Made by a program: the position numbers and the translations under genes
NCBI GenBank assembly: GCA_048213135.1
Contig: PS015093.1
Coordinates: 119,523 to 156,942, forward strand
DNA length: 37,420 nt
DNA from: Reclinomonas americana ATCC 50394
Taxonomy: Eukaryota
Direction: 5' to 3'
Shown here: positions 540 through 31,530 of the stretch, piece after piece
Position numbering within the stretch: the first letter of the stretch is position 1
Layout of the letters: the number at the start of each line of letters is the position of its first letter
The notes under the pieces: generated by a model
What the model was told of the DNA's origin: nothing
Seen by the model: the letters and a program-made list of their open reading frames with translations, nothing else
The model's database searches: none

Positions 540-1424
540 TAGGCATTAGTCGTGTTTGTGTTTCTCTTTCCTCTTCTCTCCTAGTCTTGTTTCTTCGTCG
601 CAGCGAGAGCGTGGCTCGAGTGCGTGTGCATTCGGCGGGCTCGCAAGTGGCTATTGGTGCGATATATATGTTTGCGGTGGCGTGGTGTGTGGTCTTTTCT
701 TTCTTTCTTTCTGCACCTTGGCGTGCGAGATGTTCGTAGTGAGTAAAGGAAAATGGATAAGGGCACGGTGGGGAAAGGGCAAGGGGAAGGGGAAGAGGGG
801 AGAGGGACAAAGGGGAAGAAGGGAGACAGAGGGAAAGGAAAGGAAGGAGAGAATGAGGGAGCAAATGGTGACAAGATTAGTGGAATGGAGGTCAAGAGAA
901 GACAGTCAGGCCGACGAAGTGCGAGGGAGAACCGAGGTTGGAGTGAGAAGTGCAGGGCGATGGAGGATGAGAAGACTGTCAGGCCGAAGAAATGCGAAGG
1001 AGAGCCGAGGTTGGAGTTCAAGCTGTGAGATACCATGAGCACCGCCAGGCTTTTGCTGCAAGGGAACGGAAAACGGTGAACACGTTGAGTGTTACAGCGA
1101 AGTGGCCGCGAATTCTGGCCTAGCCGATCCTGCATGCGCACACTGCGAATACGGCAAGTCACCGGATTCGGCGCAGTATACGGAGCGAATACGGTGGTCA
1201 TACGACCGGATTCGCGCGAATTCCGCAAGAGTTGTGATCGAGAATGGTTGACGAGGAGTTGAAGGAGATCGAAAACACACGCTTCGAGAGGAAAGAAGAA
1301 AGAATTGCAGCAAGGTGCGACAGCCCGCACGCAGCCACAGGAACTACTCACACTCGAGCAGCTCGAGAAAGAAGAAACGTCGCGACTCGTCCCATTTCCT
1401 CTTATTCTCTGTCTTGAGCCAAAC

Positions 1425-2510
1425 ATGCCCCCTCTTCGCTTCCTCTGCAGGTGCCTGCGAGGCCACACTGGCGAGGTCTCCAGTGTCACCTTCACTCGCG
1501 ACGGCCGGCACGTGCTGAGTGCTTCAGTGGACGGAACAATTCTCAAGGGGTCATTGACGAGTGGCGCGCATGTGCACCTGTGCTCTGCGGGATACGAAGG
1601 CGTTTGGTCACTGGCAGTCTCCGCTGACGCGCTGCGTTGTGTGATTGGAGGCTATGCAGCGCACATGTGGTCGTTTCACACAGCGCTCGAGGATCCGCAA
1701 AGAGAGAGGCTACTGCGCCGGCACGATGCAAAAGCTCCGATCATGTCAGTTGTCTTTACTCCCGACGAGCAGCACGTGGTGTGCGGGTGCTGGAACGGTA
1801 CTGTGTATGTGTACTCGGTGGCAAGCGGATACGCAGTGTGGAAGTTGCAGGATTGGCAAATGAAACAGGTGGAGACCGTGGCGGTCACGCCCGATGGTCG
1901 TCACATTGTGAGTGGTGGCGGTGAGGTGCTGCATGTGTGGTCGATGGCGAGTGGAGAGCTTGTGCGACGAATCGCAGGTCACGAGTCTGTCGTGGAGTCT
2001 GTTGCTGTCACTCCTGACGGGCTGCGCGTGGTGAGCGGCAGCTGGGACGAGACCGTTCGTGTGTGGTCACTGGCAAGCGGGGCGCAGGAGCGATGCTTGC
2101 GGGGCCACACTGACGAGGTGCACACTGTGGCTGTCACCGCGGATGGGCGGCACATTGTGAGCGGCAGTCGCGATGGCACCGTCCGCGTGTGGTCGCTGGC
2201 GAGTGGGGAGGAGGTGTGTCGGTTGATCGCGCGCTGTCATCCAGTGTGGTCGGTCGCCGTGTCTCCCGACGGGCAACACATTGCGAGTGGGAGTGCAGAC
2301 AAGAAGGTGCGCGTGTGGTCGACACCGTGCGGACTGGCGCGATTGGAGCTCGAATGGGCGCGGCGGGCGCAGCAGGCGGTGCGTGAGGCGGGCGGTGGGG
2401 ATGATGATGATTCGCGGTGCTTGCCGGAGTTGGTGCTGCGGTGCTTCATCGTCGAGGAGGCGGCGGTGGTGGTGTATAGGTGTGGGGTGGATCCCGAGAT
2501 GAGCTTGTGA
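1425..2510 (+). CDS. Intronless 7-repeat WD40 protein with a conserved ~60-aa C-terminal tail (WD-A)
   Basis: ATG at 1425 (MPPLRFLCRCLRGHTGEV). Seven WD40 units of the type GH..V.SVAVTPDG.HIVSGS.D.TVRVWS, followed by the tail ...RCLPELVLRCFIVEEAAVVVYRCGVDPEMSL*. The start codon is inferred. Confidence 0.85.
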   Translation: MPPLRFLCRCLRGHTGEVSSVTFTRDGRHVLSASVDGTILKGSLTSGAHVHLCSAGYEGVWSLAVSADALRCVIGGYAAHMWSFHTALEDPQRERLLRRHDAKAPIMSVVFTPDEQHVVCGCWNGTVYVYSVASGYAVWKLQDWQMKQVETVAVTPDGRHIVSGGGEVLHVWSMASGELVRRIAGHESVVESVAVTPDGLRVVSGSWDETVRVWSLASGAQERCLRGHTDEVHTVAVTADGRHIVSGSRDGTVRVWSLASGEEVCRLIARCHPVWSVAVSPDGQHIASGSADKKVRVWSTPCGLARLELEWARRAQQAVREAGGGDDDDSRCLPELVLRCFIVEEAAVVVYRCGVDPEMSL

Positions 2511-2947: not shown

Positions 2948-5900
2948 TTACTCATACAAAGCATTGGTGAAATCCGGAAGAAACGAACCGCATATTCTCT
3001 CGAGAACTTCTCCTTCTTGGGGGCCCCGTAGAATGTGAACAGATCTGCCGCGTGCTCGGACAGTGCGATCGCCCACAACAACTGAGAACCGAGACATACT
3101 GGCAGGATCGGCCAGAGCGCAGTATCGCACTTCTAGATCTTGTCCACTCGCCAGCGACCAGACTCGCACTGTGTTGTCCTCACTTCTACTTACAATGTGC
3201 TGACCATCGGCAGTGACAGCAACACATGTTACCGCTCTCGTGTGTCCCACCAGTCGCAGCACCTCCACACCACTCACCAGAGACCATACACGCACTGATC
3301 TGTCAGCACTCCCACTAACAGCGTGCTGCCCATCGGGAGTGACGTCGACAGACAGTGCCCCTTCAGTGTGCCCCTCCAGCCTTTGCATTTCCTCTCCACT
3401 CGCCACGGACCACACTCGTAAGGTGTTATCACCACCCCCACTCACAATGTATTCGCCATTAGGAGATGCAGCAATAGACCACACCTTTCCAGTGTGCCCC
3501 GTCAATCGTCGCACGTCTTCTCCACTCGCCAACGACCACACTCGAATCATCTTGTCATCACTCCCACTTACGATGTACTGAGCATCGGGAGTGACAGCTA
3601 CCGACCGCACCCCTCCAGTGTGTCCCTCCAACCGTCGTACTTCATACCCACTCGCCACAGACCACATTCGTACGGTCATGTCCCTGCTTACGCTGGCAAT
3701 GTGTTGACCATCGCGTGTGACAACAACAGAATACACCCACCCAGTGTGACCCTCCAACCGTCGCACTTCGCCGTTCACCATCGACCACACACGCACAGTA
3801 TTGTCACTACTCCCACTTACTATGTGCTGGCCATCGGGCATGACAACAACAGACCAAACCCACCCAGCGTGCCCCTCCAACCGTCGCACTTCCTCTCCGT
3901 TCACCATCGACCAAACACGCACAGACTGGTCAATGCCCCCACTCACGAGGTGCTGACCATCGGGCGCGACAGTGACACACAGCACCTCACGAATGTGTCC
4001 CTTCAACACTTGCGTTGCCCTACCACTTACCAAAGACCATACTGTCACTGTCCCATCCCGACATCCAATTACAGTGTGCTGTGAATCTGGAGTGACTGCA
4101 ACAGAACGCACCCTCCCATCCACAACCCGTAAACTTGCTCTCCACAACCGCACTTGCTTTCCACTCCACAGTGACCACACTCGCACTGTTTCATCATCAC
4201 TCCCGCTCACAATGTGCTGGCCATCGGGAGTGACGGCAACAGATACAACCTGGCCAGTATGTCCCTTGTATCGTCTAACCTCTACACCACTCGCCAGTGC
4301 CCACAACCGTACAGTCTCGTCCAAACTGCCACTAACAATGTGCTGGCCATCGGGTGTCACTGCGACCGATAACACAGTACCAGCATGGCCCTCCATCGGC
4401 TTCCTCGGCCACTTCACACCCGTCACATTCGCCCCTCTGAAATCCGCCTCCCTCGCATACGCCATGCACACATTCACCCCTTGAATATCCGCCCCCCTCC
4501 ACACCGTCCTATGCATCACCGCATCCCTCAAATCCGCACCCCTCACTCGCACACCCGACAGATCTCGCCCACTGAACGACACTTGTGCCACACACAACAC
4601 CGTCGCCGCATTCGCGGCTGCCGTCACCAGCCGCTCCTCATCCACCTCCCGTGACAACGAAATCACCTCCCACAGTCTCGCTTGCAATCGAGGTGACCGT
4701 CGTACCACCTCGGCCATCTGCTCCACTAACGATGGCCGATCATTCAGAAGTCGCACTGCCAGCACATGCTGCTGCACATTTTGCATCGTCAACCTGCTCT
4801 CCTCATCCCACGTCTCCCACGCAAATACATGTCGTGCCACACAGTGCTCCAACAACGACAGATGCACGAATCCCCACTGTGTCGTCCCATACCGTCGCAC
4901 AATCGGACAGCACACACGCACATGCTGATTCTTGTGACCAAGGAATTTGTCAAACGGTCCCTCTTCTACTCGTCGCATGGCGATTGGTGCACCACCGAAC
5001 TCAGCAATGTCCTCTACGAACGCCCGCTCCTCTGATGTTACGCGCACCACATTCCTCTCATGCATCAGCCGTGCCAATCCCTCACAGAAAGCGAGACACG
5101 TCTCCTCACTCGGCACACGCTCCGCACCGAGACGCGTTTGTCTCTCCTGCTCTCTCACAATCCACTGTCGAATGAATCGGTCAAACACATCACACCGAGT
5201 CGGTCGCTGCACACCATTTGCCACCAACTGCGGCAACACACGCGCCACCACTGCCAACAGGAATGGATTCGACACCAGTGCATCCAGTCCATGCACACTC
5301 TCCAATGCACGGATGTACTCTTCGGAAGTCGACCATCGCACTTCACCATCGTCATTATCATCATCACCACCAACTTGCACCAGTCGCGCGATGTATTCCT
5401 CAATCTGCTCCTTGTTGAACGGTGCAATGTGCCGCTCCATCAGCTGCTGCATGCACAGCTGACCGCGTGCATCCAATGGTGCAAAGTCCCGTCGATACTG
5501 CGTCACACCACCCAGTGCCGTAAGAGCGTAATCGCCTCGACACGCGATAATCACCTTCAAGTCGCGACACACATCCAGCTGGTTCTTGACAAACAGATTC
5601 ACACCACGATACAACTCATCGTATCCGTCAAGCAACAACAGCAATGGTTCCTCCTTCAACCGTCGCACATCGCCTTCCAATCCCAACTCGGGTGACAGTC
5701 GCTCCAACGCCTCCTCCAACAATCGCTCATCGGCATTGCGCAGAGCACCAAGAGGCACGCGCACAGGCACTCGTCTGCTCTCTCTCGCCTGCCACTGCCG
5801 CCACGCTCGCTCCGCCAGCACCGACATGGTGGTGGTCTTACCGGCTCCACTATTACCAAACAGCACCAACACACGCTGGGTGGTGTTGGCGTCGGAGAGG

Positions 5901-7216
5901 AAATCATCCACCTCCGTCAGCAGATTCGTCATCTTCTCTCTCGACGAGACGTCACGCTCACGCGAGCACACGAGTGGCACATACATCTGCATGTCCTTAC
6001 GCATACTCTCATCGTGCTGGTAGAACGAGAGCTCACGTACAGCCAGTCGATGCAGTCGCTCCTCGAAGGTGCTGATGATGTGCTGGATGTGACGTGCCTC
6101 GCAGACACGAGCGGAGAATCGAGCACGCTCATCAGCCGTCAACTGCAGTCGGGAAAAGATGGAGAGCAAGATACCACCGTCACCAAGGTAATGCTGCACA
6201 GCGACGTCTGTCAACGGCAACTCATCGTGTCTCAGCTTGTTTCTCACACTGTAAAGTTTCTTGACAGCCTTCCGTTCATCAACATTGCCAATCAACAACA
6301 GCCTGCGCCCGTCACCCAGAACGAGTCCACCATACAGCATTATGGAGGCGAGCGCCGTCGTGTCAAACCCGCCACACGGAGGGTCGGATGATGGATCTGC
6401 TGCGACAAACGCAGCACGCCAGGCCAACACCACCGACTGCTTCTCCTCGAACAACTTGACTCGAGAAGGGTGGAGTGGAGCATGTCGCTCACGCCATGCC
6501 TTCACTGCCGCCGCATCCATGCCAGCAGGCGTGTAACTCGGCACCCACGCCCGCACATCAAAGTCGGGATGATCGCGACTGAACTGCGCCAATGCGCGTT
6601 GACAGCGCAGACGCACGGCCTCCTGCACCACCTCAAAGGCCATGTTGATGCGCTGCGAGTTTATCATGCTGGGCAACACCCCATACACAGTCAGCACACA
6701 CTCACACAGAGAGAAGAATAAGCAGGGAGAGAGAGAGAGGATGACGAAGGCAAGCAGAACAAACCGAGTCATTCGCTCCGAGTTGCTGTGCGAGGACGTG
6801 AAAGTGAGATGAATGTTATGCACAGAGGAAGAACCACAGACACACACACCTTCTACTCTCACTCCCTCCACTCGACTGCAGCACCACGCCAAGAGTCACA
6901 CGGACGACGAGATCAGTGGTGGATGAATTGATGCCGAGATCCTCCAGCTCCATTCCGCCAACCTTGGCCACCTTGTACGGCACCGGCTTCTCCACTCCCA
7001 CAATCTCCATCTCCCCATCTCCGCTCTTCTCCCGCAGCAAGCGCGTGGCGTCGCGGAGCAACTCCGCGAGAGTGGACACGGCCGACAGGCCTTCCACCAC
7101 CACCGACAGCGACGAATCATGCGACGCACTCACGTGCACAGAGAACTGACAAGGAACAGTGAGCACACAGCAGAAGGAGAGATGACTGGGCACACAACAC
7201 AAACACACACCGACAT
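2948..7216 (-). CDS. NLR-like STAND protein 1: Ubl-like - HEPN-like - NACHT - pentapeptide repeats - 10 WD40 repeats (~1340 aa)
   Basis: Manual model join(7216..7211, 7145..6850, 6668..2948) with GT-AG introns and consistent phases (0, 2); a GCTGAC branch-like motif precedes the second acceptor. Motifs: Walker A GNSGAGKTT, Walker B LLLLLDGYDEL, VIIACR, SNPFLL, winged-helix FVHLSLLEH, AAANAATVL followed by pentapeptide repeats (DLSGVRVRGADLRDA...), and 10 WD40 units. The N-terminal region has FDTTALASIM...RNKLRH (RxxxxH at 6227-6244). Confidence 0.88.
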
Positions 7217-7407: not shown

Positions 7408-8502
7408 ATGTCATTGGCACGCCATCCACACCTCCTCAAGCAAATCGAGGCACACGCCGGCGAGCTCTGCTCGCTCACCGTCTCCCCCAACGGCCGCTTC
7501 TTCGTCACCGGCGGCTACGACTCGGCCATTCGCGTGTGGTCCTCCGCCACTCTCGCCGAGATCCGCGTGCTCGTCGGCCACGTCAGCGCCGTCTGGTCGG
7601 TCGCCGTCACCCCCGACAGCCGCCACATTGTGAGCTGCAGCTGGGACAACTCGGTGTGTGTGTGGAACCCGGCGACGGGACGCCAAGTGCGCACGCTGAG
7701 TGGACACTACGGGTCGGTGGACTGCATGCAAGTCAGCAGCGATGGGAAGCTCATTGTGAGCGGTGGAGCTGATAAGACTGTGCGCGTGTGGTCGCTGGCA
7801 AGTGGCGAGCTGCTGCGCGAGTTGGAGGGGCACGAGGGCTCTCTGTACTGTGTCGAGTTCACGCGCGATGGGCGTCATGTGTTGAGCGCAGGCTTTCAGA
7901 GTACGGTGATCCGCGTGTGGTCCGTGGAGAGCGGGAAGGAGGAGCGGTGTCTGGCAGGCCACACGGCATGCGTCGTGTCGCTTGCGGTCACTCCCGACGG
8001 CCTGCACGCTGTCAGTGGCAGCGATGATGGAACCGTTCGGGTGTGGTCGCTGGCCAGTGGAGAAGAGGTGCGACGGCTGGAGGGGCACGCGGATGGATCC
8101 GGAGTGCGTGCGGTGGCGGTGAGTGCCGATGGGCGGCGTATTGTCAGCGGCGGCGATTGGCAAGACGGCACAGTGCGCGTGTGGTCGCTGGCGACGGGCG
8201 AGGAGACGCGACGACTGGAGCTGTGTCCGGAGGGCGTGACGTGCGTGGCTGTGACGCGCGATGGGCGTGTGCTGAGTGGAAGCTTCGACGGGGTGTTGCG
8301 GGTGTGGTCGTCGCCGGGCGGGCGTGCGCAGGTGGAGTTGGAGAGCGCGAGGGCGGCGATGCGAGTGGTGCAGGCGATGCTGGAGGAGGAAGCTCGAGGG
8401 GAAGAGCGGTGTCTGCCGGAGCTGGTGATGCGGTGCTTTATGGTGGAGGAGGCGGAGGTGGTGGTGCGCAGGTGTGCGGTGGATCCGGAGTTGCGCTGGT
8501 GA
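7408..8502 (+). CDS. Intronless 7-repeat WD40 protein with a conserved C-terminal tail (WD-B, paralogue of WD-A)
   Basis: ATG at 7408 (MSLARHPHLLKQIEAHAGE). Seven WD40 units, then the tail ...RCLPELVMRCFMVEEAEVVVRRCAVDPELRW*, which matches the WD-A tail. Confidence 0.87.
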   Translation: MSLARHPHLLKQIEAHAGELCSLTVSPNGRFFVTGGYDSAIRVWSSATLAEIRVLVGHVSAVWSVAVTPDSRHIVSCSWDNSVCVWNPATGRQVRTLSGHYGSVDCMQVSSDGKLIVSGGADKTVRVWSLASGELLRELEGHEGSLYCVEFTRDGRHVLSAGFQSTVIRVWSVESGKEERCLAGHTACVVSLAVTPDGLHAVSGSDDGTVRVWSLASGEEVRRLEGHADGSGVRAVAVSADGRRIVSGGDWQDGTVRVWSLATGEETRRLELCPEGVTCVAVTRDGRVLSGSFDGVLRVWSSPGGRAQVELESARAAMRVVQAMLEEEARGEERCLPELVMRCFMVEEAEVVVRRCAVDPELRW

Positions 8503-10031: not shown

Positions 10032-11545
10032 TGTGGCCAGGGCAACAGCAGAAGACACACACGCACTCTCAACCCAGAGAGAAAAGAGAGCCTCTATCCA
10101 CACACTCTCACACACACGCACAAGAGTGACAAGACAACTGTGACATACCTTGCTGCACTCTCTCCCTCTCTCCTCGCCCCCTTCTCACCCTTCCCTCTCT
10201 CGCTCTCTTTGTTGCAGCGATTCTCGTTTCTCCTCCAGCATTGCTGGCGTCGGCGCAGTGGCACCCAAGAGCCGACTCTTCTCGGGTCCACCGGGAGCGG
10301 GCGGGCGACGACAGGCGGCGGCGTCGGCGTCTGGAGGCGCCTTGTCTGCGGCGGCATCGCAGCAGCAGATGGAGACGGAGAGTTGCGATGTGGGAGAAGG
10401 AGGGAGAAAAGGGGGAAGGAGGGAGGGAATGGGGAGAGGCGCAGAGACGATCGTAGACACACTCGTGTTCTCTGAGATTGAGAAAGAAAGAAGAGAGGGA
10501 GAGAGAGGGGAAAGAGAGAGAGAGAGGATGAAGAACACAGCGAGGCGCAAGGGGACAGGCGCAGAGACGATCGTAGACATACTAGTGTACTCTGCGAGAG
10601 AGAGGGCGAGTGAGAGGATGAGAAGCAGAAGGAGATGCAAGGGATACAGATACAGAGATTTTTCTGAGAGAAAGAGGAAGGAAGAAGAGCAAGAGGACAA
10701 GGACTCAGAGTGAGATTGTCGCTTGCGTTCCATCATTCCACCTCTCATCTTGAGTTTCTTGCTACGTCTCCTTTCGCATTGCGTTTGCTCTGGAGGCTTT
10801 GCACACACTCTGCCTTGCTCCTTCGTCAGTTCTTGTCCCCTTCAGTTCGTGCATCTCCTCGCCACTCCCTTGGATCGGCTCGCTGCATTCTGTTGTGCGC
10901 TTGCTCTCCTCAGTACGTGTTCGCTTTGATTCTCTGCGGTGTATCTTCTTCGCAAGCTATTCTCTTCAGTTCGCGCATCGTGTTCTTGCCATTTGTCTGC
11001 TCTCTCCCTTGCTGGAGATCTCTGCTCCCTCCTTCGTTTTTCTTGCGCTCTTGGCCCCCGAGCTCGTGTGTCTTTCTTCTCCTCTCCACTTTCAGATCTC
11101 TGCTCACACCTTCCTCACCGCCAGTGTTGTTCTTTCTCTCGTCCCTTCCGCACCCTTTGCCCTCCCCTTCCCTGACATCCTTCCCCTCTTTCCCACAGGC
11201 CTCCTGGAGCGCCAGAACGACACCTACATCGTGGACCTCGGCAAGGGCGCCGTAGTGCTGCGCACCATGGCCGAGGGCATCTCAGAAGAAGTGGATCGAC
11301 AGAATAGCTTGCTGAACGGCATGGTGCGTGCCTCTAACATCTTCCACTTCCTCCTCTCCCCCTATATCTCACTCCTTCACCCCGCACAGCAAGATGAAAT
11401 GGGCAACACCTCCAATCTCCTGTCGCGCACCATGGACCGCATGAAGGAGGTCACCAAGGCCGCGTCGTCGAAACACATGTGTTACCTGATTCTCTTTATG
11501 TTTGTCGCGCTGCTGGTTCTCTACTGGATGACCTACAAGGCATGA
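9566..11545 (+). CDS. BET1: Bet1-like Qc-SNARE (~151 aa, C-terminal transmembrane helix)
   Basis: Model join(9566..9576, 10218..10381, 11199..11323, 11390..11545) is phase-consistent: MASGDSRFSS...KSRLFSG...METESLLERQND...ISEEVDRQNSLLNGMQDEM...HMCYLILFMFVALLVLYW. It has a SNARE heptad with a central Q and a TM anchor. BET1 versus BET1L/GS15 is not resolved. Confidence 0.8.
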
Positions 11546-11838: not shown

Positions 11839-12942
11839 TTATGAGTGACCATCCTGCAAGCCACGCAGCATGGTGCGTGCGGCCTTGCGCATGGCGGCGA
11901 TTCTTCGCGAGATATTGTCGAGGAGAGCCTCGGCGACCACCTTGCGCTCCTCGTGCAAGGCGTTCCACTCGCCCTCATACTCGGCCACCGTCGTGCTCTT
12001 GGCGGTGGCAGTGGCGGCCGCCGCCGTCTCCAGCACGGCGGCCATGTACAGCGGTGTGTAGGCCTCCAGCGTTTTTTGCAGCTCCTCCGCCGTGGAGGGG
12101 TTAAAATAGGTGAAGCACGGGTCCTCCTCGCGCCCCGAGCCCCACAGCTCCACCGTCAGCACCAGCGGCACGCCGACCTTGCCGTGCGCGTAGTCGAGTA
12201 GCGTGCCGTCGGCGGGGTACTCGCTGATGCGGCGGGCCTCGCCAGTGGCCCTGCGACAATCAATTAGAGGGGAAGAGGAAAAGAGGTGAGAGCGGTCAAG
12301 GCGCACCGAAAGTTTATCGTCGTGGATTGCACGAGACGCTTCACGAGCGACTCAATGTCCGCCGCATTGCTGGCGGTGGTGGCGGTGGTGTCGGCGTAGG
12401 GCCAGTAGATCTCCGCAATGCCGCTGTGGATGTCGAGCAGGGCGTCGAGCTGGCGAGAGAGGAGGGCGTCGCGGACGAATTGTGTTTCGCGTTCGGAGAA
12501 CGGGCGGCGGCCGCGGTATTCTTCGTCGCCGATTTTACCGCTGCGCAAAAAAGGGAAGGAGAAGGGGGAGGGGGAGGGAATGGGGATGAGGGAAAGGGAG
12601 AAGAGAGAGAGAGGGATACACGAATGGAAGAGAGAGAGACAAAGACGACTGATGACAGAAGCAAAGGGGCGGTGAAATGCAGCAATAGAAGAAAACCAGA
12701 TTGGGAGTCGCAGACAAAGGGTTTATACGGACAGCTGAACGCAGTGAGGATGCGAGATTGAAACCAACAGAGAGAGAGAGACAAACAAAGACGACTGACG
12801 ACAGAAGAGAGAGGGCGGAGAATGCAGCAAGTGAAACAAACTCTCGTGGGAGTCGCAGACGAAGAATCAAGACAACCTGCTGAAAATAAAGGGAAAGCTG
12901 AACACAGTGAGGATGCGAGATTGAAACTAACAGAGAGAGAGG

Positions 12943-12973
<31 letters not shown>

Positions 12974-14566
12974 AGAGAGAGACAAAGACGGTCAAAGACA
13001 GAAGAGAGAGAGGGCGGAGAATGCAGCAAGTGAAGAAAAGACCGCTTGGGAGTCGCAGACGAAGAGTCAAAGAAAACCTGCCCATAATGAAGGGACTGTT
13101 GTGTTGCTCTGCGGATGCGAGATTGAAACGAACAGAGAGAGATAGGGAGAGAGGGAGAGAGGGAGAGAGACACAAACGAAGACGGCTGGTGATGAAAAAC
13201 CGGGGCGGAGAATGCAGCAAGTGCAATAAAACCCGCTTGGAAATCGCAGACGAAGAGTCAAAGGCCACCGAAAGGCAATGTATGATCATACAAGGACAGT
13301 TGAATCGCTCTGAGGATACGCAACGGAGCCCACCAAGAGAAAAGAGGGAGAATGGCGATGAAGACAGGAACACTCCCCATTACACGCCTCATAGAAGAGC
13401 GGCAATCACATGAGGCAAGGTCAGGGGAGGGGGTGCATCTCAATCACTCTACCTCCCTCCCCTTGTCTCCCTTCCCCCTTCCAGCTCACCTGCTCCCCTG
13501 TCCACCAAAGTTCCAATCAAAATTGCGATTGAGATCGACCTGCGCATCGTTCCCGCGAAAGCAATCATCCTTGGTCTCCTCGAGGCGCAGTCGCCCGTCG
13601 GGATTCAACAGACCAATCATGTACAACTCGGCGCGCTCCAGCACCCGCCACACGAGTGGCGACTTGCTACGGCTGCCGTTGGCGAGGTACGCCAGAAAGT
13701 GCAGGAACGACTCGCTCGGCACCAGCTCGCGCGGGTGCATGCCGAACACGAAGCCGACGCGGACCTTGTTCTGCGTGCGCGTGCTGTCCTTGCGAGCGCC
13801 CACCGGTCCGCCCGTGCCGTCCGTGTCCAGGCGCTCCTCCCGGGCGTCGTGGTCGTCGACGTCGTCGTCGATGGGGAGGATGGTGGAGGGGGGAGGAGAG
13901 GTGATCTGTGGGAGGGAAAGGGTGAGGGAGAGGAAGGGAGGTGAGAGGGAAGGGAGGAGGAAAGAAGGACATCGTCCCTGCTTCCGTCATGTGAGCGATC
14001 AACGCAGCGAGGGAAAGAACGCAGTGACGACCATTCTGTTCGTTGCCGCAGTGCAGTCCCTGAGGAGAAGAGGCGAGGAGAAACTGATCACGAAATACAA
14101 GAGCAGACACGGCAGTCTGCAGCTGACTTGACAAGGTACAGAGCAATTCTTGATTGCAAGCTGCAACTGCACAACTTCTGCAAACAATGCAGCTCTTGAT
14201 CGCAACGAGAGACAGAGTAATCCTTTGCCCTTTTCCTCCCTTATCATCCCCTTTTCCTCCCCTTCTCCTCCCCTTCCCCTTCATGCCTCCCACCTTGAAC
14301 AACTCCACACTCGTCCCTCTCCTCGTCACCGTCGACTGCACAATCTTACATGTGCCTTTTGGCGCGAACGCCTCACTGCATAAACGACGAGCCTCGCTAA
14401 TCACAGAAGACACAGAGTGATACAGATCGCGACCTTGCTCTTCCTCCTTTGCCACACTGCATAAAACACAATGTGAGGGGGAGTGTGTGTGTGAGGGAGT
14501 GTGTGTTTTCTACCTTGTGCAGGCGAGGAGGCAGAGGAGCGCGAGGAGCAGCGCGTGTCGTTGCAT
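11839..14566 (-). CDS. Secreted zinc carboxypeptidase, peptidase family M14
   Basis: Model join(14566..14514, 14456..14294, 13905..13490, 12540..12307, 12250..11839) is phase-consistent. Signal peptide MQRHALLLALLCLLACTS. Motifs: YHS, GMHPRE (HxxE), NPDG, DLNRNF, YRG..PFSE.ET, DIHS and TVEL (catalytic Glu). Confidence 0.9.
12630..13320. repeat. Intronic degenerate tandem repeat (~4 units of ~165-200 bp)
   Basis: Recurring blocks gatgcgagattgaaac (near 12749, 12912, 13114), ggcggagaatgcagcaagtg and gggagtcgcagacgaaga. Confidence 0.75.
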
Positions 14567-19067: not shown

Positions 19068-20739
19068 TGTAGTGTGTGTGTGTGNNNNNNNNNNNNNNNN
19101 NNNNNNNNNNNNNNNNNNNNNNNNNNNNNNNNNNNNNNNNNNNNNNNNNNNNNNNNNNNNNNNNNNNNNNNNNNNNNNNNNNNNNNNNNNNNNNNNNNNN
19201 NNNNNNNNNNNNNNNNNNNNNNNNNNNNNNNNNNNNNNNNNNNNNNNNNNNNNNNNNNNNNNNNNNNNNNNNNNNNNNNNNNNNNNNNNNNNNNNNNNNN
19301 NNNNNNNNNNNNNNNNNNNNNNNNNNNNNNNNNNNNNNNNNNNNNNNNNNNNNNNNNNNNNNNNNNNNNNNNNNNNNNNNNNNNNNNNNNNNNNNNNNNN
19401 NNNNNNNNNNNNNNNNGTGTGTGTGTGCGTGTCAGTATGTGTGTGTGTGTGCGTGTCAGTATGTGTGTGTGTGTATTGTGTGTGTGTGTGTATTGTGTGT
19501 GTGAGCGAGAGGGAGAGAGGGAGAGAGGGAGATGAGGAGATGGCGGATGGAAGGCAGAAACTGATATTTGATTGGTTGCTGATGTTGTGATGGCAGGGCA
19601 AGGCGGGCACGGGAGAGGACGCGACGGTTACGCAGTTGTTGGCGGCTGAGGTGAGTGGTGAACAGAAGAAGAGAAGCGACTTGCAGACGGTGCATATTGA
19701 AGAGATGCAATGCATGTGCCTGTGAATCTGTGTCGGTACTATGTGTCCCACCGTGTTTCTAACACAAGGAGTTGAGCGATCCTTACCTTTCCCCTCACTC
19801 TTCCCCCTTTCCCTTGTGCAGCGCGCCACTCGCTCCGCCGACTACTCCCTCGAGCTGGCTCGCTCGCTGGGCGGTGCACAACATGGCCGCGCTCTCGACG
19901 ACGCCTTTGACGGCGCCGACTATCCCGACGTTGCGCCATCCTCCCATCGTCCTTGCTCTGCTCTCTTTGCTAACTTGCTTTGCATTTCTCAGAAATCCGG
20001 TCGAAAGCCACGGCAGCCACGACCCGGCCAGCAGTCCAAGGAGCAGCGCCAGCGCCAGCAGACCATCATGCGTTTCGTCCACACCCTTCCGCGAATTCCC
20101 TCCTCACCCTCGCCCTCACTCTTCTCCCTTTCCTCGACACAGACAACCAGCGCTCGGCACGCGCCCTGGAGGGCTGCCAGTGGTGCATGAACACGCCAGC
20201 CTTCCGCCGCGACCTGATGATCGCCATGGGCGAGCACGTGCTGCTGATGCTGACGCCGTCGCAACCGATTGTGGCCGATCAGTGCTGCCTGGTGCCGATT
20301 ACGCACGCCTCCTCGTGGCGCGGTGTGGACGAGGAGGTGTACGAGGAGATGCAGGTGTTCCGCCGGCACCTCGTCAACATGTTTGAGGCGCAGGATCGCG
20401 GTGTGGTGTTTGTGGAGACGGTGCGCTTCCTGAAGAAGCAGATGCACACGCGCATCGATTGCTACCCGCTGCCGCGCGAGTCGGCCGAGGATGCGCCGAT
20501 TTATTTCAAAAAGGCCATTATGGAGGCCGGCAGTGAGTGGTCGCAGAATGTGCGATTGGTGGATACGAGGGAGAAGGTGAGTGGGGGGAAGAGGCAAAGG
20601 GAGAGGGAGGTGAAGAGACGGAGAGGCAAAGGGGGAGAGAGACAAAGGGAGAGAGAGGGAGTGAAGGGAGGGAGAGAGAGGCGAAGGAAGAGAGAGGCGA
20701 CGGGAGAGAAAGAGAGGGAGGCGGAGGAGAGAGAGGTGC

Positions 20740-20773
<34 letters not shown>

Positions 20774-22417
20774 GCAAAGGAAGAGAGAAATTGAGGTGAA
20801 GTGCGATGGTATTGCCAGAGAGACAAGTGGGGGGCGAGTGGGAGGTGAAGGAGAGAAAGAGGAGAGAGGCGCAGGAAGAGAGAGGTGAAGAGAGAAGGGG
20901 CGGAGAGGGATTCGAAGAGAGAGAGAGAGAGAGACAGAGAGACAAAGTGAGGGAGAGGCGAAGGGAGAGAAAAAGGAAAAGGGAATGAGAAACGAAGAGA
21001 GGCAGAGGGGCGTTCGTGAAGTCGGATGGAGACAACAGGGGAGCGAAGGTTGAGGGAGGTGAAGGGAGCGAGTGGGAGGCGACGGGTGACAGAGGCGAAG
21101 GTGGAGGGAGAGAGAAGGCGAAGGGAGGGAGAGGGAGACGAAGGGAGAGAGGGGAAGGGTCGGGGAATAATATTGGAGTCGGGGAGAAGGCAAGCACAGA
21201 TGATGTTTGCGAAGTGGGATGGTGTTATCAGAGACAATTGGGGACAGAGATGAGAGAGACAAATGGAGAGAGAGGGAGAGCCAAAGGAAGAAGAGAGAGA
21301 GAGGGAGACAAACGGAGTGNNNNNNNNNNNNNNNNNNNNNNNNNNNNNNNNNNNNNNNNNNNNNNNNNNNNTTCTCCCTCTCCCCTCCTTCGCCTTCTCG
21401 CTCCTTCTTCGCCTCCCACTCTCTCCCGTATTGTCTTCTGATAACATCATCTCACTTCACAAACGCTCCTCTGCGCTCTTCTTCTCCCTCTCTATGTCCC
21501 CAACTTCGATATTCGTTTCCTCTACTCTCATTTCGCTCTCCGTTCGCCTCACTCTCCGTCCGTACACCTCTCTCTCCTCCTTCGCCTCTCACTCTCTCCC
21601 CTATTGTCTGTCTGCGAACACCATCCCACTTCGCAAACATCATCTGTGCTTGCCTTCTCCCTCTCTGTCCCCGACTCCAAATTTGTTTCCCCAGTCCTTT
21701 ACCCTCTCTCCCTTCGCCTCCTTCTNNNNNNNNNNNNNNNNNNNNNNNNNNNNNNNNNNNNNNNNNNNNNNNNNNNNNNNNNNNNNNNNNNNNNNNNNNN
21801 NNNNNNNNNNNNNNNNNNNNNNNNNNNNNNNNNNNNNNNNNNNNNNNNNNNNNNNNNNNNNNNNNNNNNNNNNNNNNNNNNNNNNNNNNNGAAAGAGAGG
21901 GGAAGGGACGGGGAATAATTTTGTAGTCGGGGGAAAATGGCGATCGCAGAGGAGCGTTGCTGAAGTGGAATGGTGTTGCTGACGTCCACTGGTGACAGGG
22001 ACTGCGCCGATCTATTCCCGAAGGCTTTGCGTACTTCCACGTCGAGTTCGAGCAGGGTGGCGGTTTCGCGCACATTATCGAGGAGGAGAAGGAGTGGTCG
22101 CAGGGCTTTGGAGAGGATATCGTTGGTGGCATGCTGGAGATGGACCCGGAGCAGGTGAGCAACAAAAAGAACGGCTTATTCCTCCTCCTCTGTCTCACTC
22201 ATTCGTCGCGCAGTACCTGGGACGCCGACGCGGCAAAGGCGCAGCCACGAATGCCGCTGCGGCGGTGTCGGAGCGCGACCGCCTGCGCAGCTTCCTCAAG
22301 ATGTGGGAGCCTTACGATTGGACGCAGATGCTGGATGGAGGCGATTATGAGGGTTCATCTGCCGCCCCCGCCGCCACCACCACCACAACGACGGAGACGG
22401 CTGCTGCGGGAGAGTAG
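15347..22417 (+). CDS. CWF19L2: CWF19-like protein 2 (CwfJ C-terminal domains), multi-exon and spanning gaps; first exon not located
   Basis: Family motifs occur in order across exons: REEWMT, RELNPYLKDGGSGLP, DGGAMWRRKA..RA.E.A.EEGR.FEEVV.ERWGSL, NKLA...MKAQL.G, CQWC, VVFVET, HT.IDCYPLP, APIYFKKAIMEA.SEWSQN, FAYFHVEF..GGGFAHIIEEE, FLKMWEPYDWT. Stop at 22415-22417. A His/Asp/Arg-rich low-complexity insert lies at ~17800-18120. Confidence 0.9.
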
Positions 22418-22435
22418 TCTTGATTTCTTTACCAT

Positions 22436-25190
<2,755 letters not shown>

Positions 25191-25516: not shown

Positions 25517-31166
<5,650 letters not shown>

Positions 31167-31283: not shown

Positions 31284-31530
31284 NNNNNNNNNNNNNNNNN
31301 NNNNNNNNNNNNNNNNNNNNNNNNNNNNNNNNNNNNNNNNNNNNNNNNNNNNNNNNNNNNNNNNNNNNNNNNNNNNNNNNNNNNNNNNNNNNNNNNNNNN
31401 NNNNNNNNNNNNNNNNNNNNNNNNNNNNNNNNNNNNNNNNNNNNNNNNNNNNNNNNNNNNNNNNNNNNNNNNNAGTGTGGGAGGCCACGTCATGAATTGT
31501 CATGGGTGGATGAGTGGCAGGGAGGGAGAG

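Follow-up and report, generated by a model that had tools for sequence, protein, structure and literature searches.

The subject of this report is a pair of related genes on the minus strand of a 37,420-nucleotide stretch of Reclinomonas americana ATCC 50394 (assembly GCA_048213135.1, contig PS015093.1, positions 119,523 to 156,942; hereafter the window). Each gene is best explained as a whole, with a probability of about 60%, as one receptor of the NOD-like receptor (NLR) type, a member of the signal transduction ATPases with numerous domains (STAND), that carries a probable, diverged HEPN domain as its output. Two long open reading frames extend over 2948..6892 (copy 1) and 25517..29923 (copy 2), and homology between them starts at conserved ATGs at 6667 and 29716, from which products of 1239 (P0001) and 1399 amino acids (P0002) are encoded that share 74% identity over 1181 aligned residues. 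In both copies a single open frame leads from residue 1 to the end of a WD40 array, placing an N-terminal region, a central NACHT module and a C-terminal repeat sensor in one polypeptide, the tripartite arrangement of NLR-type proteins. An earlier note on this DNA had proposed such a design (N-terminal effector, NACHT, repeat sensor), and it holds, with one open frame for each gene. Divergence along the protein is uneven, since nonsynonymous divergence (dN) between the copies is 0.25-0.30 over the first ~200 residues and 0.07 in the NACHT region; the corresponding ratios of nonsynonymous to synonymous divergence (dN/dS) are 0.27-0.30 and 0.17, conservation being judged throughout on two family members, both in the window.

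The central and C-terminal modules are firmly identified. The NACHT module lies above the Pfam threshold (E 7.1e-8, 32.9 bits against a cut-off of 26.7), and its Walker A (GNSGAGKTT, residues 271-279) and Walker B (LLLLLDGYDE, 342-351) motifs are invariant in both copies. The pentapeptide repeats also exceed their threshold (PF00805, 26.4 bits against 20.2), and 13 PDB chains of pentapeptide-repeat or designed beta-solenoid proteins match residues 694-753 at E <= 0.03, the best at 4.7e-9. Pfam finds 10 WD40 stretches in copy 1 and 14 in copy 2, corresponding to 10 and 14 units of ~42 amino acids. Pfam, the Walker motifs and the identity between the products agree with the earlier description of two paralogues with intact NACHT motifs and C-terminal WD40 repeats. 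The units are near-identical, with entropy peaks at unit positions 15/16, 18, 34 and 36, and near-identical units with a few hypervariable positions are, as read from the repeats, the signature of a diversifying ligand-binding surface. A single residue separates two adjacent units of copy 2, suggesting that a unit was recently duplicated or that the units evolve in concert; in copy 1 one unit is 46 and another 41 amino acids long, and some units lack the GH or W signature. The 68-residue C-terminal tail, 56% identical between the copies over 45 amino acids, has no Pfam match.

The ~200 residues ahead of the NACHT module are probably a very diverged HEPN domain of the Swt1/DZIP3 (Abi2/Swt1) group, with an R-x4-H motif of catalytic type kept in both copies. 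The motifs on which the earlier note had built this assignment are present: FDTTALASIM (residues 101-110) is identical in both copies, D102 precedes R142 by 40 residues, and R142/H147 of copy 1 (RNKLRH, 142-147) correspond to R143/H148 of copy 2 (RKGLAH, 143-148), with R and H kept. When the N-terminus of copy 2 was compared with Pfam at E <= 10, the sole match was HEPN_Swt1 (residues 131-157, profile positions 74-100 of 115). The language-model features of the ESM Atlas point to the same group. For residues 1-209 of copy 1, 22 of the 30 nearest clusters, tallied by summing the counts printed for each family set, carry HEPN_Swt1, HEPN_DZIP3 or DUF4559, which we take to be the CXorf38 family, with scores of 0.90-0.94 and member shares of 20%, 11-38% and 11-37%, respectively; the remaining eight have no family in common. 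The CXorf38 family has been assigned to the Swt1 group (PMC3710099). When residues 85-215 of copy 2 were used, the first three places were taken by clusters of HEPN_DZIP3 (94% of members), HEPN_Swt1 (99%) and, again, HEPN_DZIP3 (55%), and nine of the ten best named matches belong to the same family or clan as the first.

Profile-profile comparison was carried out with hhalign, using a two-sequence profile of the paralogues as query, without a secondary-structure term, and as HEPN_Swt1 template 21 bacterial PF18731 domains collected from two phyla (10 of 401 and 11 of 401 genomes; three further genomes searched yielded none). Against 10 of these domains the score was 33.4 (P 5.6e-5, probability 66%); none of 200 column shuffles, a control that destroys local composition and so flatters the score, reached it (mean 12.1, maximum 21.2), and the reversed query gave 12.5. 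Against all 21 domains the score was 29.9 (P 3.9e-4, probability 36%), again above every one of 100 shuffles (maximum 24.8), and the alignment spanned residues 95-158, that is, the FDTTALASIM helix and the R..H helix. When 14 windows of 129 columns were slid along residues 1-688, scores of 29-34 were obtained in only three, all containing residues ~131-158, and the other 11 scored 10-17. MAFFT, given no hint, aligned the domain end to end with the bacterial PF18731 family: FDTTALASIM falls on the family's (W/L)D.AALL..(V/M) helix and ERKAVKKLYSVRNKLRH on its ER.LV.EL..VRNRWAH. In the alignment of 12 sequences no columns other than those of R142 and H147 are invariant, with D102 coming close; in that of 23, invariance holds for H147 and very nearly for R142. 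The RK..AH pattern of copy 2 recurs in one bacterial family member, as RKAFAH. It is this family alignment, and not a motif count, that singles out R142/H147, and the HEPN-like core has a dN/dS of 0.27 between the copies.

A considerable body of results weighs against the HEPN assignment. The HEPN_Swt1 match of copy 2 is below threshold (13.2 bits against 27.5, E 0.11), and Pfam gives the N-terminus of copy 1 no HEPN match. The Atlas recognition value for copy 1 residues 1-209 is 2122, below 2300; only three of its ten best named matches share a family or clan, and the Atlas grades the call 'probably wrong', while residues 85-215 of copy 2 score 0.75-0.77 ('lead only'), on a calibration that is not valid for protein parts. 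HH-suite probabilities are 36-68%, and 6% and 18% for the single sequences; to these must be added the flattering effect of column shuffling. Besides R142/H147, the first 235 residues contain another conserved R....H (RHAPLH, at 61/63) and two instances of Rx6H, and the R-x4-H motif, counted in the sequence by itself, is no more than expected by chance. A word-indexed search with residues 1-235 found no relatives, and an exhaustive phmmer search of 1.84 billion representative proteins gave one match only, a 3151-residue coiled-coil repeat protein aligned in 22 stretches that we judged to be spurious. Two metagenome scans for the region gave 595 and 594 pattern matches, none of which was confirmed. 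PADLOC and NCBIfam held nothing relevant for the N-terminus (one NCBIfam row, TssE, E 0.085), and nothing was returned when the PDB was searched with the profile of the two N-termini; the same search with a 23-row alignment gave weak unrelated rows, with the HEPN-like protein HepS at E 1.9.

Structure prediction provided no independent support. With the two paralogues alone, AlphaFold2 reached a mean predicted local distance difference test score (pLDDT) of 39. With 21 bacterial HEPN rows added, pLDDT rose to 78.9 and the predicted template-modelling score (pTM) was 0.71, in a model that is circular because the added rows are themselves HEPN domains; its core consists of helices at residues 2-32 and 103-112, a hairpin, and helices at 129-146 (ending at R..H) and 154-204. 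Foldseek found no PDB match to this model at E <= 0.001. The PDB rows obtained for it, all under the noise mark of 8, were 6vrc (Cas13; 6.6, 4.7, 110), 3o10 (sacsin HEPN; 6.2, 3.4, 91), 4pqz (yeast Swt1 C-terminal domain; 6.2, 4.2, 124), 8vz6 (AbiF; 6.0, 5.4, 151), 4rgp (Csm6; 5.8, 5.4, 113), 3c8g (possible regulator YggD; 5.6, 3.6, 96) and 1wwp (ttk003001694; 5.4, 3.7, 90), where the first of the three values is the score; 3c8g and 1wwp are listed among HEPN structures in PMC3710099. A homodimer prediction for the N-terminal domain, into which the alignment was not taken, scored 0.01 against a mark of 0.32, a value that counts neither for nor against pairing. Overall, the proposal of a Swt1/DZIP3-type HEPN is favored by several weak, partly independent lines, but reaches no curated threshold.

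Directly upstream of both genes, on the same strand, frames of ~84 amino acids (7145..6894 and 31166..30915) are 75% identical in amino acid sequence, and a short conserved exon is likely to be spliced in frame ahead of the HEPN-like domain. This predicted exon 2 begins right after a CT-rich tract and AG in both copies, and its dN/dS of 0.26-0.31 (27 of 53 differences synonymous against 26% expected, p 1.2e-4) indicates purifying selection. Both exons 2 end AG/GT two bases into a codon (6850/6849 and 30868/30867) and both main exons start AG/C-ATG (6669/6668 and 29718/29717), and because the phase-2 donor and acceptor match, splicing there would preserve the reading frame in each copy. At the DNA level the copies are similar only in the proposed exons, except for one CT-rich match of 56 nucleotides, and the same junction style is seen at the CWF19L2 exon of the window. 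Weighing on the other side, no ATG precedes the internal Met in the exon-2 frame, and exon 1 is a guess; its equivalent in copy 2 falls in a run of N. The outer coordinates of the earlier note, 7216 and 31166, correspond to the ATG and the AG acceptor, respectively, of the proposed upstream exons. Its ubiquitin-like ('Ubl') label for this module was not supported: Pfam assigns neither copy of exon 2 to a family at E <= 10, and the six weak rows of a PDB profile search include no ubiquitin-like chain, leaving a conserved coding exon and an in-frame splice model. A strand-helix-strand pattern can be read in exon 2 by eye only.

In STAND proteins oligomerisation is released by ligand, and in HEPN ribonucleases (RNases) a composite R/H site is formed from paired domains. 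By analogy with the former, a ligand would bind the WD40 propellers and release autoinhibition, upon which the NACHT module would exchange nucleotide and oligomerise; by analogy with the latter, the N-terminal HEPN domains would thereby be brought together and pair to form the composite R/H site. Cleavage of RNA could then cause translation arrest or cell death, in an abortive-infection-like response or in self/non-self discrimination. We infer RNase activity, dimerisation and ligand activation from these analogies. RNase L, Ire1 (KEN-type HEPN), Csm6 and Cas13 are HEPN RNases activated by induced dimerisation or conformational change. The proposed receptor would share their logic, a latent HEPN nuclease in which a sensor brings two HEPNs together, as an analogy and not as membership; they belong to other HEPN families, have no STAND NTPase, and sense 2',5'-oligoadenylate (2-5A) with ankyrin and pseudokinase domains, unfolded proteins, cyclic oligoadenylate or CRISPR RNA (crRNA).

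The competing explanations touch different parts of this reading. It is conceivable, though we consider it unlikely, that the first ~200 residues form a helical effector or adaptor domain peculiar to the lineage and unrelated to HEPN, in which R-x4-H occurs by chance, making each protein an NLR-type receptor with another output, such as membrane attack, protein recruitment or signalling through a partner. The lack of any curated model above threshold (Pfam, PADLOC, NCBIfam, PDB profiles) and of sequence relatives (word-indexed search; phmmer on 1.84 billion proteins) speaks for such a domain, as do the pLDDT of 39 without borrowed rows, the second conserved R....H and the 'probably wrong' grade of the copy 1 family call. 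Yet profile hidden Markov models, language-model features and profile-profile comparison each pick the same few families among ~24,700, the hhalign signal is restricted to the R..H helix region (3 of 14 windows) and exceeds all 300 shuffles, and D102, R142 and H147 fall in the family's conserved columns with family-like spacing. Very improbable in our judgement is a HEPN fold without nuclease activity that serves as an RNA-binding or RNA-sensing element or an oligomerisation surface, with output through another protein. The Swt1 HEPN has been described as possibly inactive, with a possible binding or sensing role (PMC3710099), and copy 2 has K instead of the usual N after the arginine; but both copies, under purifying selection, retain R and H, RK..AH occurs in a bacterial family member as well, and the versions counted as inactive in PMC3710099 are those in which the motif is lost.

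Two further alternatives leave the HEPN-like output in place. The upstream exon could be a separate small gene or belong to another transcript, with the receptor starting at the ATG at 6667/29716, which is improbable in our estimate; only the first module would be affected, and a receptor with a HEPN output could still stand. The AG/C-ATG start of the main exon would suit a true start codon after an intron in the 5' untranslated region, upstream of exon 2 there is no ATG in its frame, the first exon is a guess of six nucleotides, and exon 2, part of a splice model predicted from sequence, has no family match. Against a separate gene stand the purifying selection on exon 2 in its own frame, its location immediately upstream, on the receptor's strand, in each copy, splice phases that match although the introns cannot be aligned, and the absence of a start codon for a stand-alone gene. 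As to biological role, the same molecular mechanism might serve self/non-self recognition within the species rather than defence against pathogens, a possibility that we regard as rather less likely, though not remote. The near-identical WD40 units with variation at positions 15, 16, 18, 34 and 36 and the different unit numbers of the two copies recall the HET-E/NWD genes of Podospora, in which near-identical WD40 units also show concentrated variation, and fungal proteins are among the closest NACHT relatives; yet the repeat pattern fits pathogen sensing equally, and bacterial HEPN outputs are tied to antiviral roles (PMC3710099).

The preferred explanation, an NLR-type receptor with a diverged HEPN output, has precedents, and the earlier view that this is not a described system was overstated, since HEPN-NACHT proteins have been described computationally in cnidarians, molluscs, cephalochordates and bacteria. 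Cephalochordates and cnidarians have CXorf38-type HEPN domains combined with NACHT and DEATH, and bacteria have N-terminal HEPN domains with STAND NTPases (PMC3710099). The pearl oyster has more than 50 DZIP3-HEPN-NACHT proteins; its NACHT proteins can end in WD40, TPR or LRR, and Rx4H is the commonest motif of its HEPN domains, usually with N after R (PMC9646362). HEPN is the NACHT partner found most often in 9 of 15 cnidarians, anthozoan species having 17-83 such proteins (PMC8260672), and is one of the domains listed for bacterial NACHT architectures (10.1101/2022.07.19.500537). The RNase output of the animal proteins is a prediction only (PMC3710099, PMC9646362, PMC8260672). The pair in the window resembles the animal proteins, whose HEPN is of the DZIP3/hRUL138-like or CXorf38 type, in its probable N-terminal Swt1-group HEPN with Rx4H, usually RN...H, ahead of NACHT, in belonging to expanded or duplicated gene families of immune type and in its predicted RNase output, and the Atlas neighbors of its domain are mainly cnidarian and mollusc clusters. 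It differs from them in that the domain lies under the Pfam threshold of either family and in the addition of a pentapeptide stretch and of the predicted extra N-terminal exon.

With the bacterial HEPN_Swt1 domains (PF18731, Ava_2192-like), the family to which it aligns, the domain shares D...R-N-x-x-A-H, and bacterial HEPN-STAND proteins likewise combine an N-terminal HEPN with STAND NTPases and repeats; identity to PF18731 is, however, only 11-22%, and the domain in the window has two loop insertions. Ava_2192-type HEPN has been found fused to an AAA+ ATPase (PMC3710099). We observed PF18731 domains in 21 of 802 bacterial genomes (two phyla), in open frames of 187-1223 amino acids; 14 of the 21 are N-terminal in frames of 1000-1220 amino acids and the other seven lie in frames of 187-643. 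No paper on HEPN, NACHT, pentapeptide repeats and WD40 together, and none on a HEPN-NLR in a non-animal eukaryote, was found in the open literature, leaving aside supplementary tables and subscription papers, and the word HEPN is absent from the available part of a preprint on fungal NLR effectors (10.1101/2022.03.16.484565). The supplementary tables of PMC9646362, PMC8260672 and PMC3710099 may already hold a pentapeptide-WD40 or Ubl-bearing version. The gene pair is a new, very divergent version of the described HEPN-NACHT design, not a new kind of system.

The remainder of the protein has its relatives elsewhere. Among 8000 candidates scored with the NACHT region (residues 200-700), seven relatives were found at E <= 0.001, with 25-30% identity over 80-100% of the 501 residues; WD40 or propeller domains are listed for all seven, pentapeptide repeats for at least five and NACHT for at least three. 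Five carry a source name (Mycoavidus cysteinexigens, Entomortierella, Mortierella and two JGI 'WD40 repeat protein' records), a sixth has a EukProt identifier only and also carries TIR_2, and none of the seven bears an animal name. Judged by sequence, the chassis is closest, among the relatives detected, to the NACHT-pentapeptide-WD40 proteins of Mortierella-type fungi and Mycoavidus. The Mortierellomycotina and Mycoavidus proteins are alike in the pentapeptide stretch that separates NACHT from a long run of closely similar WD40 units and in occurring as several paralogues per genome, but their N-termini are other and longer (~500-600 amino acids), with no HEPN seen in them here; a 520-residue Mycoavidus N-terminus gave only sub-threshold TPR matches in Pfam. 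One Mycoavidus cysteinexigens assembly holds at least five paralogous NACHT-pentapeptide-WD40 loci that are 65-80% identical to the query P0005 over the best segment. NACHT-WD40 proteins of Mucoromycota and Mycoavidus are mentioned, and horizontal transfer is raised, in 10.1101/2022.03.16.484565.

Table 1. Coordinates in the window of the parts of the two predicted receptor genes; exon and intron limits are those of the proposed splice model.
Feature	Position	Strand	Remarks
Putative first mini-exon, copy 1	7211..7216	-	ATGTCG, then GT donor; nearest ATG upstream of the exon-2 acceptor; inferred only
Exon 2, copy 1	6850..7145	-	conserved ~84-aa module and variable ~14-aa tail
Proposed GT..AG intron, copy 1	6669..6849	-	181 nt, between exon 2 and main exon
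HEPN-like domain and main exon start, copy 1	6053..6668	-	residues 1-205 from ATG 6667
Key codons, copy 1	D102 = 6362-6364, R142 = 6242-6244, H147 = 6227-6229	-	
NACHT module, copy 1	4598..5950	-	residues ~240-690; Walker A K277 = 5837-5839; Walker B D347-E351
Pentapeptide-repeat stretch, copy 1	4424..4588	-	residues ~694-748, between NACHT and WD40
Ten WD40 units, copy 1	3155..4423	-	residues 749-1171
C-terminal tail (68 aa) and stop, copy 1	2948..3154	-	kept in copy 2; no family
Exon 2, copy 2	30868..31166	-	after (CT)n and AG; ends AG/GT, phase 2
Proposed intron, copy 2	29718-30867		contains 444-N gap
Main exon, copy 2	25517..29717	-	
HEPN-like domain, copy 2	29099-29716	-	R143 = 29288-29290, H148 = 29273-29275
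NACHT, copy 2	~27656-28996	-	
Pentapeptide repeats, copy 2	~27491-27655	-	
14 WD40 units, copy 2	25727-27490	-	
Tail and stop, copy 2	25517-25726	-	

In this draft sequence 11 gaps (runs of N, e.g. 30115-30558 and 31284-31473) together take up 2287 bases of the window; they are bordered by long (GA)n/(CT)n tracts. Since copy 2 has one of these gaps within its proposed intron and another immediately before its exon 2, its 5' end is unreadable. Copy 1 is flanked by two WD40-only genes, at 1305-2510 (+) and 7408-8502 (+), whose units resemble those of the receptor. The latter starts ~190 bp from the putative ATG of the receptor at 7216, on the opposite strand. Both end in a common 50-residue tail (CLPELV.RCF.VEEA..VV.RC.VDPE, 57-74% identical) that has no Pfam family and no third copy in the window, and they may be partners or decoys of the receptor. 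Housekeeping exons with CT/GA-rich introns lie at 20163-20576 (+), 21996-22436 (+), 11842-12351 (-), 13489-13986 (-), 10754-11542 (+) and within 22593-24911 (-); because these genes are split by such introns, the window comes from an intron-bearing eukaryote. The CWF19L2 exon, named from matches carrying PF04677 and PF04676, is 41-42% identical to vertebrate proteins and bounded by ordinary GT..AG sites, and neighboring genes switch strand. These sites and the strand switches led us to reject a kinetoplastid origin, which the CT-rich tracts before AG had brought to mind. Other exons, recognised by eye only, resemble an M14-type carboxypeptidase, a SNARE-like tail-anchored protein and a JAB/MPN exon with GWYHSHP.

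We tentatively propose, at somewhat less than even odds, that the pair represents the first HEPN-output NLR outside animals and bacteria, in which a eukaryote would have independently placed a Swt1-group HEPN, by now too diverged for sequence searches to find a relative, and a small N-terminal module on a NACHT-pentapeptide-WD40 chassis known otherwise from Mortierella-type fungi and Mycoavidus, and in which a ligand on the hypervariable WD40 surface would activate the RNase by induced proximity. Corals and bivalves have HEPN-NACHT receptors among their most expanded predicted immune genes, and the unbroken main exon, clear R-x4-H and modular WD40 array of the genes described here would make them a convenient construct for the question of whether STAND oligomerisation turns on a HEPN RNase by induced proximity. 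The occurrence of a NACHT-pentapeptide-WD40 chassis with different N-termini in fungi, in a fungal endobacterium and in the eukaryote of the window bears on how NLRs are assembled and exchanged.

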